Source of the DNA: a virus
Lineage: Duplodnaviria > Heunggongvirae > Uroviricota > Caudoviricetes
Length of the DNA stretch: 17,219 bases
Reading direction: 5' to 3' (one strand)
Virus record (IMG/VR): IMGVR_UViG_2547132273_000010
Part shown: positions 6,001 to 12,000 of the stretch, piece by piece
Layout: every line of letters begins with the position of its first letter
Position numbering within the stretch: position 1 is the stretch's first letter
Program-made: the position numbers

Positions 6001-9000
6001 AGTCTTCAATTTTTTTGCCCCTGACTTCACCTCCGCGCACAGTAGCTTCCCTGTCAGTAGAGACAGTTGTTTCAGATTCAGGTGCGATTGTCTCAGGCTG
6101 CGGGATGTCACGATTTCCTCCGGCCTGTCGACGTACTTCTGCCTGCTGTGCGAGCTCAGGCAATGAGTTACGAACAGTTCGGGGAAGCTGATCAGGCTGA
6201 GGCATACGGACATTGTGTGTAATGTCCGGAGCCGGTAGCCCTTCACGTACCGGTGCTGTCGCGTTCTGCGCATCCGGTGACGGCAGACCACGACGAACCA
6301 TTTCACCCTCGAGTGTTTCCCCCTGGCGACCAGCGGCGTTTTCCGGTGCCGGAGCTTGTCCTTTCTGGAAACTCTGGCCCTTAACCTCACCGGTTGTGGT
6401 AAAACGACCACCACGTCCGGCCTGATTTTCATCCGGCGTACGCGCCACTTCTCCCGGTAACGGATATCCCTGTCCGGGATGAATATCGCCGGGAGCGGGC
6501 AGGCGCGGACGCTCAGTTAACTCCTGTGCTGTCGGACCGGCATCACCTTCAGCCATCTGTGAACGTACAAGCTCCTCCGCCGTCGGCGCGTTGCCACGGG
6601 CAAGGCGGGCCTGTACCTCCGTATCATCCCCCGTGAAACCACGGAATCGCGGGTCACGCATGAACGCGGGCTGCTCCATCGGGTCAGCATCAGCAATACG
6701 CTCTCTGTCAGCCAGGGTGTTAATGGTTTCCGTTGCCACATCTTCAGAGAACGCAGGATTATCCATTTCAACGGCATACTGATTCTCGCCTTTCTTCACT
6801 ACGGACGGTTTCAGGCCGGTGGCGGCGGCATTACGGAAAACATCACTCCCCATGGCGCTTTTCTCATCCGTGAAATAACGGTTGTCCGGGCGCACCTTCT
6901 CAATGCGTTCCGCTGGTCTGGACGCACCATTCCCGTTAATTTCAATGCGGACTTCATTCGGGTCCCGGAACCGCACCGTCGGGTAAATGCTCCCGTTACC
7001 ATCCTCCGCATTTTCAGGCTGTGACTGTGCTTCCGGCGTCACTTCCTGTTGTGGGCGAATGACTTCTCGTATTGCCTGAAACTGTTGTTCTTCAGTCTCG
7101 GTGCGCCCCTCTTTCTGGCTGAGTCTGCGGTATTCCTCAAGCAGTTCAGAACGCGGCTTCGCCTTCAGCTCATTCATCACAGCCTGTCGCTTCGTCTGTT
7201 CGTCCAGTTCATTCAACAACTGGCTGGCAGCTTCCCGGCGATGAGCTGCGGATGCGTCACCCTCTGTTGCCATATCCGCATCAGCATACTGCTCCAGAAG
7301 CTGCTCGCGATTCATGCCCTGCATGGATTCACGCTGCTGCGCCACCGGATCAACAGATTCTGGTTGCGGGGCTGCGTCGTCCTGCTGCACGGTTTCAGCA
7401 TCACGCATGGCGGTTTCTTCTGCGGCCTGACGTCTGCCACGATATCCGGCAACCGCACCGAATGGAGCCCCCATCGCAGCACCAAGGGCAGCACCTTCGA
7501 TCGTTGCGTCAGCCACGCCCTCCCATGGCGATACATCCATTCCGGCGGTCTCACGCAATGCCGTGTTTTCCTGATAGCGTGAATAGCCGCCCTGCGCCGC
7601 ATTAATCGCCCCCTGTGCAGTGGCATTTCTGACAATGCCGCTTTTAACGGTCTTCGCTGTGCCTCGTGTCACCAGATTAAACAGTTGTGCGTCACCCAGT
7701 TTTGCCGCCATGGCATTCACAGCCAGCAATTCAGGATCGGTTGCCAGCTGCGCGCGCACCTCATCGGCAACACGCTCTTTTGCCAGATCCATTTTCTGGC
7801 GATCAGTAAGCTGTGCGTGCTGCGGGTCGGCGTCAATGGACAAAAACGTCTGCTGAAATTTCGGTGACTGCGCCAGCTCAGAGTAATCAGCATTAAGAAC
7901 AGCATCTGCTGCCGCCATTGCACTCTGCCCCTGTGCACTTACAGTGGAATGGGTGATCAGGCCCGCCTGGAATAAATCCGGCATTTTTTTATCGACAGCT
8001 TCTGCTGCCAGTGCCGTGGCTCTTTCCGGCTGCATCCCTGCCGCGATGTATTTTTTCTCCAGCCCGGCGGTCAGCATTTTTCGCAGTGTGACATCACCCA
8101 CCTTTCTAGCCACACCGCCAGCAACCATATCAGGTACAAGCGCACCAATCAGGTTTACACCCTTCGCCACCCAGACCGCAGAATCATTATAGCCTTCGGT
8201 CATCGGCGTATTCAGCGCACGAACTGCACCCGGCGACATCTTACCGGTCAGCCATTCATCAGTGGCTTTGGCACCATCACTGACAGCCTTACCGGTTGCC
8301 TTCAGACCTTTACCGACAGTATCAGTAACCGCGTTTTTGCCATCAGGCAGGGTATCGATGACCTCATCAGCCCCCCTGCTGCCACCGGCAAAAATATCCT
8401 GCACAGTTGCGACACCCGGCAGCCCCATACGGCTAAACTCATTTAAAATACGCGCCCCTGTTTTTACCGGGCTCTGAATCATCGCATCACCGAGTCCACG
8501 GGCCATTTCCCCTGTTCCCCGGACGGACTGGGCGAAACCTTTACCCATTGTTGGCAATACATCGCCCAGGCTGAACGACGTACTGTTATCCTTCCAGCGA
8601 TTCGGATCAGAGAAAAATGCTTCATAGCTGTCAGTTTCGCCGGGTTGCTGAATGTTCAGGCTGTTACGATTCTGGTTACCGAGTTGCGCCTCAGGACGCT
8701 GTTCCTCTGAATAGGCCATACAGACTCCATAAAAAAACCCGGCACAATGGCCGGGCATCAGGAAATGGTATTAATGGAATATCGTGAATTACTGGGCGTA
8801 ATTCTGTTTCAGTCCACGGATAAACTGAGATGCAGATGAAGCACTTTCATCTCTGGCCTGTTCCCCCCTGGCCTTTTGAATACGGAGAAAATTCGCATAC
8901 CCGTTCTCCAGCAATTTCTGATTCTGAGGTTCCAGCATTTCAGGCTGACGGGCCGCTACATTTCTGGCAAATGACAGCTTATCAGGATCATCTCCCGCCC

Positions 9001-12000
9001 AGTTGATAACCTGTTGCTGAAGTTTTTGTTGCTGAATTTTCTGTTGATGCGGTTGTGAACCAGTCGCAGCATAATATTCATCCACCGCAGCCTGAGCATT
9101 ACCGCCATTCTTGATCGCGTCCGCCGCTACGTTGCTGGCCCCCTTCTGAAGCTCTTTCAGAGAAAGTCCCTGCTGCTTCGGCATAAAATAACCATAATTT
9201 TTCGATATCTCTGCAAATTTGCTGCGATCCCTGACCTGAGCGATAGCCTTATCAACGGGTATCGCCAGCACGGTTTGATCATCAGGGTGCGCACTGCCGT
9301 ATTCTGTTACAGGTTTATGCGCGGTGGAGCCATCGCTGTATGTGAGATCAAGGCCAATAAGTACGTACCCTTCCTGCTGCGCTGGTACGATACTGCCAAT
9401 CCTGGCCTCTTTTATCGTTTTTTCCCCGGTTGAATCAGGCATGCCAATACGCTGTTGTAGTTCCGGGGCAAACACGCCGGAAAGCACATCGAGATTTTCC
9501 GGGGTATTCAGCGAATCGATCGCCATGTCCGGCTTATCACCAAAGATTTTTTGCAGGTTGATCACGGCCTGACCCGCTTTCGCTGCATAGCCTTCGTTTG
9601 ACATAAGAATTAATGGATGTCCCTTTGGCAGCTGCCCGAACAGACGCGTTGCAGCCTCCTGATCGCCAGCCTCAATTGCTTTTCCAAGCGCTTCCATTAG
9701 TGGCTGGCTATGGGCAATCATATCGTTATACTCAAGCCGTCGCTGGTTGTATTTCTGCAACTGGAGTCGCTGCTGCTCCATACCCAGTGACGCATTCCGG
9801 TAATTCTGGTTAGCGTTAAACTCCCTTTCCTTCAGTGCATAATTACGGTCGTCAACTTTGGCTCTGTAATCAAAGTTCCGCTGATCAACGTTTTTATTAT
9901 GTTCAAACTGAGACTGCGCAAACTCAAAATCGCGCTCGTTATTTTTCTGTTGCCGGGCAAGCTGTGCTTCACGCAGACCAAGCTCCTTACGACGGGTCAT
10001 TGCCTGGTCAACGGTGCTGAATCCGGCAAGTAACCCCTGTGCAAATCCGCTCATTCACCACTCCTTAAAACAAAGAACCAGCAATGCCGCCAATTACTGC
10101 TCCAGCAACAGCACCAACAGGACCACCAACGGATGCGCCAATAGCCGCCCCCGTACCAATGCCCGTACCGATATTCTGCTTGTTCTGCGCTTTCTGTTGC
10201 GCCGCCATCTGTTTGTTCGCAGCCTCAATTTCTTCACGTCGTCTGTCTGCGTCACTTATTCCCTGTAATGCCTCACGCCGCGACTGATTTGCAATATCCA
10301 GTAAACCGTATCCCATATTGCCCCCTTACGCTGCCACCAGTTGGCCGCCAACACTCAGTTTCTGTCTTGCCGGTGCAGAAGCCCCCGTCAGAATATTCAT
10401 CTGGCGATCCTGTTCGGCTTCACGGATACCATTTTTCGCGCCAGCAATTGCTAGGGCATTACGTAACCCCAGCGTATTACTGTCGGGATTATCCGGGCGG
10501 TTTACCCCGTATCTCGCCATCTGGTTATCCTGCGCCATCTGCGCTGTACGGAGACTGGAAGTGGCAAGGCCTCCCACCCGTGCAAGCTGTGCATTCATCA
10601 GACTGTTGTTCTCCCCAAGGTCAGCCAGCCTTGCTACACGGGGTAAATATCTGGTGCGCCAGTCGTCGTATTGCTGGCGGGTCAGCGCTGCGGATGTCTG
10701 CCAGTCCCCCTGAGGGCGGGCTGCTCCGGTATAACCGTATCTTGCAAGTGTTTCGTATTTACCGTACTCCATAATCACAGTCTCCAGTTCTGAGCCTGAT
10801 GCTGAATGGCATTAGCGCCGGTGCCAGGTGTTTTAGCACCGCCACTTCCTCCGCTACCGCCAGCCTTATGCATCGCATATGCACCTGCCGCACCCAGACC
10901 AGCGCCAACAAGAGAGGCTCGCCCCTGCTGTTTCGTAAACGCCGCCTGTGCATCCGATTTAGCTTTTGCCAGACTGCTGTCTGCCAGAGAGTTAAAACTC
11001 TGTAACGCATCCGCCTTCTGACCAGAACCGAGAGCGGCAACATCCTGTAGCCCGGCAACATACTTATCTGCCTGCGATACCTGCCCCCGTGTGGTTGTGT
11101 CAATCTGCCCGGTTACCTGATCACTCTGGTTCGCATTCATTACCGCGTTAAAGCGACCACTGGACGGGTCAACACCGGACTGAGCAAGATTACCCGCCAG
11201 CTCCCTTCGCGCTTCACCAAACTGTTTCTGATAACCAAGATTTGTTGTGCCAGCGATATTGTCGTACTGCTGCTCACTGTTAAGGTCATCGACCTTTTCC
11301 ATGAAGTTATCTTCAGCCGGGCGGAGGATATTTTTGTAATCCTGCCACCCTTTCCAGGCCACTTCTTCCTGTGCTATTTGCGCTGCTGTTGGTTTTACTT
11401 TGGTATCACCACCGCCTTTACTTCCACCCATAATGGCCCCCTGGATAACAAAAAACCCTGCCGGAGCAGGGTCAGAATGTGAATTACAATGTTGGTTTAA
11501 ACACAATGATGAAAACTGTAGCAGTCAGACCGCTATCCTGAACACCATGAAGCCATCCTCATCATCCGGCATTCGCTCAAAGCCCAGTCGTTTTCCCAGC
11601 CGGATAAATCCCCGCCTTGCCGTATGGAACTCAGCCCAGCGTCCGCCAGCCAGATGGGTTAATGTCTTCACCTCCGGCAGGTAACGCTCAACGCTGTTAC
11701 TCCCCGTACACACGCCCAGCAACACCAGAACATAAGGGATACCATCAGCACTGAGCACAGAACGCAGCACCAAAAAGCCATCAGGTGCCTCAAAACAAAA
11801 CGCCTGCTTTTTAAGGCAGGCGTCTTTAACTTCATTCATAAATTCAGGGTTGCGGGAATTTCTCACAACACGCTGCATATACCAGAGAATTTTATCGTTC
11901 ATTCTCTCACCTGAAACGGGTGCCATATCGGCTGAACCTCAGCAACCAGTTGACGGGGACTCTCGTCCCCGTCGCGGTTTTCCTACTGCTTACACTGTAA

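Follow-up and report, generated by a model that had tools for sequence, protein, structure and literature searches.

The window analysed here is a 17,219-nucleotide (nt) stretch of DNA from a virus (Duplodnaviria; Heunggongvirae; Uroviricota; Caudoviricetes; IMG/VR record IMGVR_UViG_2547132273_000010), and consists of a single gene array that lies on the minus strand throughout. The genes in question are four small ones, which encode proteins of 218, 148, 83 and 421 amino acids (aa) in that order along the minus strand, and the gene for a giant polyvalent protein of 2,793 aa that follows them (Table 1). Intergenic gaps of 2, 9 and 10 nt separate the four, and Shine-Dalgarno (SD)-like sites (GGAG within the final codons of the 218-aa gene, TAAGGGGG, and TAAGGAG) overlap or adjoin the upstream stop codons. 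In coordinates, strand, gap lengths and the placing of the SD sequences this confirms a preliminary description of the window, which had been made from the sequence alone. That description also had the four tightly coupled genes precede the giant gene; they do lie directly upstream of it, but the 421-aa and giant genes are not tightly coupled because a 69-nt structured spacer stands between them. The chosen starts of the four genes are supported by their N-termini, which align across nine diverged lineages, and the PHROG families of the four proteins are all annotated as being of "unknown function".

A 2.9-kilobase (kb) region of the window is 100% identical to Escherichia phage P13374, the Shiga toxin (Stx) 2a phage of the 2011 O104:H4 outbreak (Sepvirinae), and 98.9% identical to phi24B, with 99.8% identity at the protein level to 933W and VT2-Sakai (Sp5). 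Of 5,426 complete E. coli genomes 425 carry the region, as do 186 phage records, and the window represents the late region of an Stx phage with a short tail. Cryo-electron microscopy (cryo-EM) of phi24B identifies the 563-aa gene as that of the tail nozzle and the 422-aa gene as that of the central needle, a trimer anchored in the nozzle lumen that is gone upon ejection (Bubenchikov et al. 2026, bioRxiv 10.64898/2026.04.10.717836). Homologs of the nozzle occur in Bcep22, PEp14 and Ralstonia and Vibrio phages, and the nozzle gene is the start of a conserved nozzle-needle-ejection block. The lom gene, a 205-aa gene and a 46-aa Hok/Gef gene are insertions; in Aeromonas and Vibrio relatives the needle gene leads directly into the small-gene block. 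It had seemed puzzling in the preliminary description that genes of this composition should stand after a J-like and lom module, at the site where lambda carries its side-tail-fibre genes. This was a misreading, and the puzzle dissolves because the phage is short-tailed, the J-like gene is a podovirus needle gene and lom is an inserted moron.

By residue count the four proteins are rich in glycine, alanine and glutamine, as had been described: alanine, glycine and glutamine make up 15.6, 13.8 and 10.1% of the 218-aa protein, alanine, leucine, arginine and glycine 15.5, 10.1, 10.1 and 9.5% of the 148-aa protein, glycine and alanine 18.1% each of the 83-aa protein, and alanine and glutamine 11.6 and 10.9% of the 421-aa protein. 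The earlier remark that an enzymatic signature is lacking agrees with a count of zero enzymatic Pfam domains in the four. The 148-aa protein has no Pfam or PDB match, and PDB sequence searches with each protein and with a profile of the 421-aa family returned nothing meaningful.

One of the proteins had been called a classic glycine-zipper membrane peptide. The 83-aa protein contains 13 overlapping small-xxx-small-xxx-small motifs in residues 50-73, which bears out the description, while its match to the Pfam family Gly-zipper_YMGG (E 9.4e-6, 25.7 bits) falls just below the 28.9-bit cut-off. The protein is made up of a polar N-terminal helix and a C-terminal glycine-zipper membrane helix (residues ~50-83) that ends in SLF. 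The best 19-residue Kyte-Doolittle windows score 0.82 in the 218-aa protein and 1.69 in the 83-aa protein, with one candidate segment in each. The AlphaFold2 monomer of the 218-aa protein, built from a 42-sequence alignment, consists of disconnected helices with a predicted local distance difference test (pLDDT) score of 47, for which reason it was not used for a fold search. The term coiled-coil-like, applied to the group in the preliminary description, fits the 421-aa protein, whose AlphaFold2 model (pLDDT 86) has an uninterrupted helix at residues 4-129, a small beta domain at residues 213-266 and a helical C-terminus. At 0.15 nm per residue this predicted helix would be about 19 nm long, and the width of the E. 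coli periplasm is comparable. The most conserved stretch of the 421-aa family is a strand motif, "VTYxDGSTAxKPVT" (residues ~235-252), in the small beta domain; its likeness to a Gram-positive surface-protein repeat (PDB 6s5w) has an E value of 0.17 and was set aside as a possible chance match.

In-frame deletions of the corresponding open reading frames (ORFs) of Sp5, in which ORF76-80 are the 218-, 148-, 83-, 421- and 2,793-aa genes, have been published (Mondal et al. 2016, PMC5155283). ORF79 (421 aa) and ORF80 (the giant) are essential, and their deletion gives DNA-filled, non-infectious particles with normal-looking heads. The ORF76 (218 aa) deletant is still infectious, with infectivity and lysogenisation markedly lowered, and ORF77 (148 aa) and ORF78 (83 aa) are dispensable, plaques and lysogenisation on K-12 being unaffected. 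The particles lacking ORF79 or ORF80 were not labelled by an anti-tail-fibre antibody, and on this ground the authors of the Sp5 study regarded both as tail-formation genes.

The virion structure and proteome of phi24B (Bubenchikov et al. 2026) bear on the same proteins. Mass spectrometry of purified virions had been put forward in the preliminary description as a check on a virion role, and liquid chromatography-tandem mass spectrometry of this closely related phage detects the 421-, 218- and 148-aa proteins at ~20-40 copies each. The main text of that paper is silent on gp48, gp50 and gp51, and its supplementary tables list all three. The 421-aa protein (gp48) is estimated at ~30 (18-56) copies per virion and peaks in the ~45-47 kDa gel slices beside the capsid protein, the 218-aa protein (gp51) at ~22 (14-41) copies with a gel peak among the ~23-kDa adaptors, and the 148-aa protein (gp50) at ~36-40 (22-73) copies with no gel peak; structure-based copy numbers are entered as "ND" for each. 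Peptide-spectrum matches (PSMs) for gp48 exceed those for the portal, and gp48 and gp51 form discrete gel bands of the expected size. PMC8402733 reports ~12-30 copies for the P22 ejection proteins; the phi24B copy numbers fall within this range and were therefore counted in favour of an ejection cassette. The giant (gp47) is abundant in phi24B virions and invisible in the maps, and is proposed by the authors to be packaged in the virion and ejected; the adaptor lumen holds diffuse, unassigned density, which vanishes in ejected particles (Bubenchikov et al. 2026).

The tail-formation interpretation of 2016 assigns to the 421-aa protein and the giant a necessary role in building or stabilising the short tail and in attaching its fibres, as minor parts or as chaperones. 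It accounts for particles that are filled with DNA and look normal and yet bind no anti-fibre antibody, and the genes do lie in the tail gene region. The phi24B tail, however, has been modelled in full at 2.7-5.1 A, and consists of the portal gp72, adaptors gp64 and gp62, nozzle gp57, fibres gp61 and needle gp56 only (Bubenchikov et al. 2026); gp48, gp51 and gp50 are more numerous than any tail ring, yet have no density in this model. The immuno-electron microscopy is moreover a negative result for which PMC5155283 shows no data, and the giant bears domains of effector type. A role in tail assembly or completion is thus considered improbable.

That the 421-, 218- and 148-aa proteins are in the virion, though not as parts of the capsid shell or tail structure, is supported by the phi24B literature, and the 83-aa protein is probably packaged too. 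The last (gp49) was detected in phi24B virions with 13 PSMs and was filed by the authors as probable contamination because of its "bacteriocin" annotation (Bubenchikov et al. 2026). Its under-detection is to be expected, since a single 37-residue hydrophobic tryptic peptide makes up almost half of the protein. It is very improbable that the four genes specify non-virion products, membrane-active or serving lysogenic conversion, and that their detection in virions reflects contamination. This explanation would take at face value the PGAP name "bacteriocin", the filing as a contaminant and the label "Transcription factor?" that gp48 carries in a spreadsheet, and would note that morons (lom, hok and the 205-aa gene) are close by. 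Against it, existing proteomics contradicts the explanation for three of the four proteins, the PSM count and discrete band of gp48 also count against it, and the genes are kept in the structural module of distant phages that lack these morons. Assignment of the 83-aa protein to the class IIc bacteriocins was rejected: the Bacteriocin_IIc match scores 19.7 bits against a cut-off of 27.1 bits and covers only the glycine-rich helix, the N-terminal 45 residues are a conserved polar segment with no double-glycine leader, and the window contains no transporter or immunity gene. The 421-aa family likewise has no DNA-binding domain, and both labels are annotation artefacts.

A first homolog search returned only near-identical E. 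coli proteins and gave little alignment depth. The 421-aa family is small, with 66 cluster representatives among 1.84 billion, and wherever its genomic context was fetched (nine lineages, among them Aeromonas phiARM81mr, Vibrio D80 and five further prophage lineages) the same block was found, encoding proteins 17-40% identical to those of the window. Its order in the relatives is nozzle, needle, a protein of ~103-133 aa, one of ~193-225 aa, one of ~117-148 aa, a glycine-zipper protein of ~77-93 aa (205 aa in one lineage), one of ~433-554 aa, and a giant of 2,257 to over 4,800 aa. The 148-aa gene is syntenic in all nine lineages examined, and a 133-aa gene upstream of the four, absent from the preliminary set, in seven. 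In the window the order next to the nozzle and needle is likewise small to large, namely nozzle, needle, the morons, and then 133, 218, 148, 83, 421 and 2,793 aa. Comparison of gene neighbourhoods across related prophages, which had also been proposed as a check, thus finds the block conserved.

The 218-aa protein matches phrog_611 (E 2.9e-120) and phrog_8003, annotated as "virion structural protein" (E 9.4e-9), and its family aligns with Bcep22 gp70, annotated as virion-associated, over 130 columns (hhalign probability 97.5%, E 8.7e-12), so that on profile comparison the two families are judged homologous. Caesium chloride-purified virions of JC1 contain the gp70 homolog gp64, gp68 (encoded just upstream of the giant) and the giant itself. 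Resemblance to P22 gp7 was found in two of the proteins. Relatives of the 83-aa protein score 11-22.5 bits against Pfam P22_gp7 (PF25688; 28-bit cut-off) in the C-terminal third only, and in hhalign the 83-aa family matches the gp7 family over the last 35 columns (92% probability, E 5.6e-7), both ending in G-S-L-F. The N-terminus of the 218-aa protein (MGGSKGGGDTKVKPTAAQIAQEEVAWKGWQDYKNILRPAED) aligns over 41-47 columns, at 35-58% probability, with the N-terminus of mature gp7, past its 20-residue leader; the protein itself has no PF25688 match at E <= 0.1. These similarities in sequence amount to partial resemblance to gp7, not to membership of its family. The 148-aa family matches neither P22 gp7 nor any Pfam family, and the 421-aa family shares with Bcep22 gp74 a short N-terminal motif only (5% probability).

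The giant contains the Pfam domains LPD5 (residues 1051-1200), LPD1 (1361-1440), MuF_C (1750-1839) and LPD38 (2476-2681). A C-terminal LPD38 is present in the relatives wherever a complete giant was scanned, and the other domains vary, InPase for example standing in place of LPD5, LPD1 and MuF_C. The parts conserved in BLASTP comparisons are residues ~1-470, a segment around 1473-1673, and ~1886-2790, the middle being otherwise variable, and the C-terminal ~900 aa are 27% identical (E 5e-66) to the C-terminus of Bcep22 gp75. In the giant no stretch of 19 residues reaches strong hydrophobicity (>= 1.4), and a classical transmembrane anchor is therefore not supported.

The four small proteins and the giant contain no cysteine (Cys) in 3,663 residues, for which the chance is about 2.5e-18 at a Cys frequency of 1.1%, while the flanking 133-aa, Lom, 205-aa and nozzle proteins contain 3, 2, 4 and 8. 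The partition is identical in every relative examined (L002, L003, L005, L006, L008-L010, L013, L015 and L016-L018), where nozzles, plugs and portals all have Cys, and the giants of Bcep22 and PEp14 (4,602 and 4,914 aa) have none. Proven ejection proteins follow the same pattern: P22 gp7, gp20 and gp16 have 0 Cys in 1,309 residues, N4 gp52, gp51 and gp50 have 0 in 4,294 residues, and T7 gp14, gp15 and gp16 have 1, 0 and 0. The small non-ejected proteins encoded upstream, P22 gp14 and T7 gp13, have 4 and 3. The criterion is an empirical signature derived in this analysis from proven ejection proteins and is not a published one.

Of the known systems compared, P22 (with Sf6, HK620 and CUS-3) has its cassette at the same site, directly after the genes for the nozzle-type gp10 and the needle gp26, and its order 10-26-14-7-20-16 parallels that of the window in having a small Cys-containing non-virion protein, a protein of ~220 aa, one of ~420-470 aa and a large one. 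The ejected set of P22 is also Cys-free and is present in tens of copies per virion without ordered density, the gp7 C-terminus is a glycine zipper with SLF like that of the 83-aa protein, and the mature gp7 N-terminus resembles that of the 218-aa protein. The window differs from P22 in two extra small genes (148 and 83 aa), in gp7-like features spread over two polypeptides, in the dispensability of two small genes, in a 421-aa protein with no detectable similarity to gp20, and in a last protein of 2,793 aa with effector domains in place of one of 609 aa. T7 has the same order, 12-13-14-15-16, after its nozzle gene 12, with rising sizes, a trans-envelope conduit and Cys-free gp15 and gp16. Its core is, in contrast, an ordered stack visible by cryo-EM in which every protein is essential, and gp16 includes a transglycosylase domain; similarity to the T7 internal core proteins was detected neither in sequence nor in fold.

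In N4, gp52, gp51 and gp50 (150, 644 and 3,500 aa, the last being the virion RNA polymerase) combine small membrane-active proteins with a giant encapsidated one, encoded beside tail genes. The T=9 capsid with an N4-type coat, a giant that is invisible in the maps, fragments in the adaptor lumen that are lost on ejection, and the absence of Cys are common to N4 and the Stx phages, and the 218-, 421- and 2,793-aa proteins fit the small-medium-large pattern of ejection cassettes and of N4. No sequence relationship to N4 was found, however; the giant is a polyvalent peptidase/RNase-like protein and not an RNA polymerase, and there are four small proteins as against two. An arrangement with sequence homology is that of the Burkholderia phages Bcep22, BcepIL02 and JC1 (Lessievirus), the Erwinia phage PEp14 and GP4-like Ralstonia phages, in which a nozzle, small virion proteins and a giant annotated as "DarB-like" follow one another; in this group the nozzle is homologous (27-30% identity) and the corresponding small and giant proteins are Cys-free. 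The JC1 proteins gp64, gp67, gp68 and gp69 were detected in purified virions. The group differs from the window in that the small proteins are of other number and size (331 and 532 aa in Bcep22), metabolic morons such as PAPS reductase are interspersed, an acetyltransferase is at the site of the 133-aa gene, and the giant has methylase and helicase domains.

Taken together, the four genes are read as encoding the small subunits of an ejection (internal virion protein) cassette, a divergent one of podovirus type, in the short-tailed Stx phages (Sepvirinae), with a probability of roughly 0.7. The suggestion in the preliminary description that they are internal or ejection proteins of podovirus type that act with the giant is in this respect supported by the virion mass spectrometry of phi24B and by gene neighbourhood. 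The cassette would be transcribed as part of the Q-antiterminated late operon, with its genes coupled in translation; the 218-, 148- and 421-aa proteins are packed within the head or tail lumen, and not in the shell or tail, in tens of copies each, as published work on phi24B shows. At infection the BamA-binding needle would exit the nozzle, and the four proteins would be expelled, unfolded or as slender helices, before or alongside the DNA and the giant. Two of them, the 218-aa protein and the glycine-zipper peptide of 83 aa, may then insert into a membrane, as P22 gp7 and T7 gp14 do, and the 421-aa protein, with its predicted ~125-residue helix of ~19 nm, may oligomerise into or dock onto a periplasm-spanning tube, as do P22 gp20 and T7 gp15. 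The giant would complete the conduit, for the DNA and for its own effector domains, with its conserved N- and C-terminal regions, and its variable middle (a zincin peptidase, LPD1 and the RNase-like MuF_C domain) would be an injected effector. The 148-aa protein would be an accessory component, the 133-aa protein a non-virion helper like P22 gp14 and T7 gp13, and the 421-aa protein could alternatively be a subunit on which the giant docks.

Several observations weigh against this assignment. The 421-aa protein shows no similarity in sequence, profile or fold to P22 gp20, T7 gp15, Sf6 gp12, N4 gp51 or any solved structure; a profile comparison rejected its family as a relative of gp20, and no relative outside its own family was found in PDB or among the predicted viral structures of BFVD. 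The gp7 matches are short and partly of low complexity, the 218-aa family reaches only 9-58% probability, and the 83-aa protein of the window has no Pfam P22_gp7 match at E <= 0.1. The search for remote homology to P22, T7 and Sf6 proteins, which the preliminary description had recommended, therefore yielded gp7-like fragments and nothing of the gp20 or gp15 type. A single clearly hydrophobic segment, that of the 83-aa protein, occurs in all four proteins, and neither this nor the 218-aa protein has the 4-5 membrane helices in ~200 aa that are predicted for the class of T7 gp14. Canonical ejection proteins are essential, whereas the 148- and 83-aa genes are dispensable and the 218-aa deletant is infectious. 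A pure ejection role does not predict the missing fibre labelling of the ORF79 and ORF80 deletants, and the number of PSMs for the 83-aa protein is low. Some non-ejected proteins are also free of Cys (scaffolds including that of P22, the P22 needle and the N4 coat), and the absence of Cys is for this reason supportive and not diagnostic. Finally, the exit of the four proteins from the virion and their arrival in the host envelope are steps that we infer, with the adaptor-lumen density lost from ejected phi24B particles as the one indirect hint; we likewise infer that the 218- and 83-aa proteins insert into membranes, that the 421-aa protein serves as a tunnel and that the 133-aa protein acts as a helper.

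The main rival, with which most of the data also agree, casts the small proteins chiefly as loaders or organisers of the giant cargo that recruit it, fold it compactly or tether it in the procapsid in the manner of the P1 Dar proteins, and build no channel themselves. P1 provides a precedent, in which DarB enters the head only with the help of DarA, Hdf and DdrA; deletion of ORF79 phenocopies that of ORF80; the small genes always accompany the giant gene, whose conserved N-terminal ~470 and C-terminal ~900 aa could be docking regions; the Bcep22 and PEp14 giants are annotated as DarB-like, and the JC1 authors suggest Dar accessory roles for unidentified virion proteins; and the dispensability of the 148- and 83-aa proteins would suit accessory packers. 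It is nevertheless held to be unlikely. Pfam and PHROG searches with the four proteins detected no similarity to DarA, Hdf or Ddr, and the giant of the window has no methylase or helicase domain. The gene order and the gp7-like termini point to a cassette of the P22/T7 type, and a glycine-zipper membrane helix has no obvious use that is purely intracapsid. Loading of cargo and ejection are not exclusive of each other, for within the head the ejection proteins of T7 and N4 likewise organise one another.

The system is not wholly uncharacterised, contrary to what the preliminary description had suggested, given that deletion genetics of Sp5 (2016) and proteomics of phi24B (2026) are published. 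The genes, the deletion phenotypes and the presence of the proteins in virions are known, and the giant has been proposed as an ejection protein. A literature search that combined 933W with ejection proteins found no paper, and the placing of all four small proteins, the "contaminant" gp49 among them, in a conserved P22/T7-like ejection block appears to be new, as do the conserved chassis of the giant with its variable middle and the Cys-free signature. A wider proposal, to which we give somewhat less than even odds, is that the block (the 133-aa helper, the four Cys-free proteins and both conserved end regions of the giant) represents a podovirus ejectosome of a distinct and widespread type, found in Stx phages, Lessieviruses, GP4-like Ralstonia phages, Pavtokviruses and Vibrio and Aeromonas phages. 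In such an ejectosome the tunnel protein would bear no relationship to those of the T7, P22 and N4 types, separate peptides would share the gp7-like functions, and the giant would be a chassis for swappable injected effectors, in effect a phage-borne effector-delivery system; the ejected set could then be recognised in any podovirus genome by a simple sequence rule, namely its complete lack of Cys.

E. coli strains receive Shiga toxin genes from short-tailed Stx phages, and one such strain, that of the 2011 O104:H4 outbreak, is the source of this sequence. Assignment of the four proteins to the entry machinery offers concrete experimental targets for Stx phage infection and host range. It also reinterprets the published "tail formation" phenotype and rescues a protein that was dismissed as a contaminant. 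The Cys-free rule and the giant chassis could aid the annotation of ejection proteins and effectors in podoviruses where sequence searches fail. The gain is incremental, as a proposal of an ejection role for the giant and the presence of the small proteins in virions were both on record, and the interest rests mainly on the medical importance of Stx phages and on this use in annotation.

Table 1 Coordinates of genes and other features in the window and, in the last row, of the corresponding junction in relatives (designated by L numbers)
Feature	Position	Strand	Designations and remarks
218-aa gene	11431..10775	minus	ATG start; Sp5 ORF76/ECs1238; phi24B gp51; PHROG 611
148-aa gene	10772..10326	minus	ATG start; Sp5 ORF77/ECs1239; phi24B gp50; PHROG 596
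83-aa gene	10316..10065	minus	Sp5 ORF78/ECs1240; phi24B gp49; PHROG 594; PGAP name "bacteriocin"
421-aa gene	10054..8789	minus	Sp5 ORF79/ECs1241; phi24B gp48; PHROG 601
Giant 2,793-aa polyvalent protein gene	338..8719	minus	Sp5 ORF80/ECs1242; phi24B gp47; partner of the four small proteins
133-aa gene	11926..11525	minus	Sp5 ORF75; PHROG 610; conserved fifth member of the block
Terminator-like GC hairpin, then a T7 run (seven T)	8756-8737	minus	In the 69-nt spacer between the 421-aa and giant genes
Terminator-like hairpin plus T-run	11454..11473	minus	Upstream of the 218-aa gene
Tail nozzle gene, 563 aa	15362..17053	minus	phi24B gp57 equivalent; PHROG 511; assigned by phi24B cryo-EM
Central tail needle/fibre gene, 422 aa	14097..15365	minus	phi24B gp56 equivalent; Pfam Phage_Tail_Tip; the "J-like" gene
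Hok/Gef-family toxin gene, 46 aa	11983-12123	minus	Pfam E 4e-8; between lom and the 133-aa gene
205-aa "membrane associated protein" gene	13181-13798	minus	phi24B gp54; PHROG 425
Hairpin-bearing junction of the 421-aa-type and giant genes in relatives	L008 11303-11371; L010 11498-11600; L003 12853-12968; L013 11666-11855; L009 11390-11890		

The 133-aa gene lies 2-13 nt upstream of the 218-aa-type gene in most relatives, and its product is not in the phi24B virion protein lists. By analogy of position with P22 gene 14 and T7 gene 13, at whose site it stands, the protein is probably a non-virion assembly factor. A GNAT acetyltransferase occupies the same position in L012, Bcep22 and JC1. Descent of the 133-aa protein from a degenerate GNAT acetyltransferase and homology to P22 gp14 were both rejected (hhalign probability 0.2-3%), and only the positional analogy was kept.

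The true start of the giant gene is most likely the ATG at 8719, which has GGAG 6 nt upstream and gives a product equal in length to Sp5 ORF80, rather than the ATG at 8758, the annotated start (2,806 aa in RefSeq P13374), which falls within the terminator-like hairpin of the spacer. A hairpin and T-run between the 421-aa-type and giant genes are also present in five diverged relatives (six lineages in total), with differing sequences, and may govern how much giant is made relative to the small proteins or lend stability to the upstream mRNA. The same junction is also an insertion site of foreign genes (L015, L009 and Aeromonas). The hairpin upstream of the 218-aa gene is lineage-specific, the corresponding gap in most relatives being the short one given above. 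Rfam at its gathering thresholds gave no match anywhere in the window, and hence no Sok-like RNA.

Terminator-like hairpins on the opposite strand lie near the Hok/Gef gene, at 11951-11974 and 11800-11823, and might end an antisense RNA. A Hok gene is found in the same region of the Salmonella-type relatives L007 and L008. The 205-aa gene resembles a moron in that it is missing from the Aeromonas and Vibrio relatives, yet its product has been detected in phi24B virions, at ~2-4 copies, and was not placed in the structure (Bubenchikov et al. 2026). The nozzle frame is unbroken in the window, whereas RefSeq and GenBank records of the P13374 type give it as two coding sequences (ORF67 and ORF68), which probably reflects split annotation or a difference of 1 nt in P13374; by tblastn the nozzle matches P13803 (L001 15547-17237) in one piece at 100% identity.

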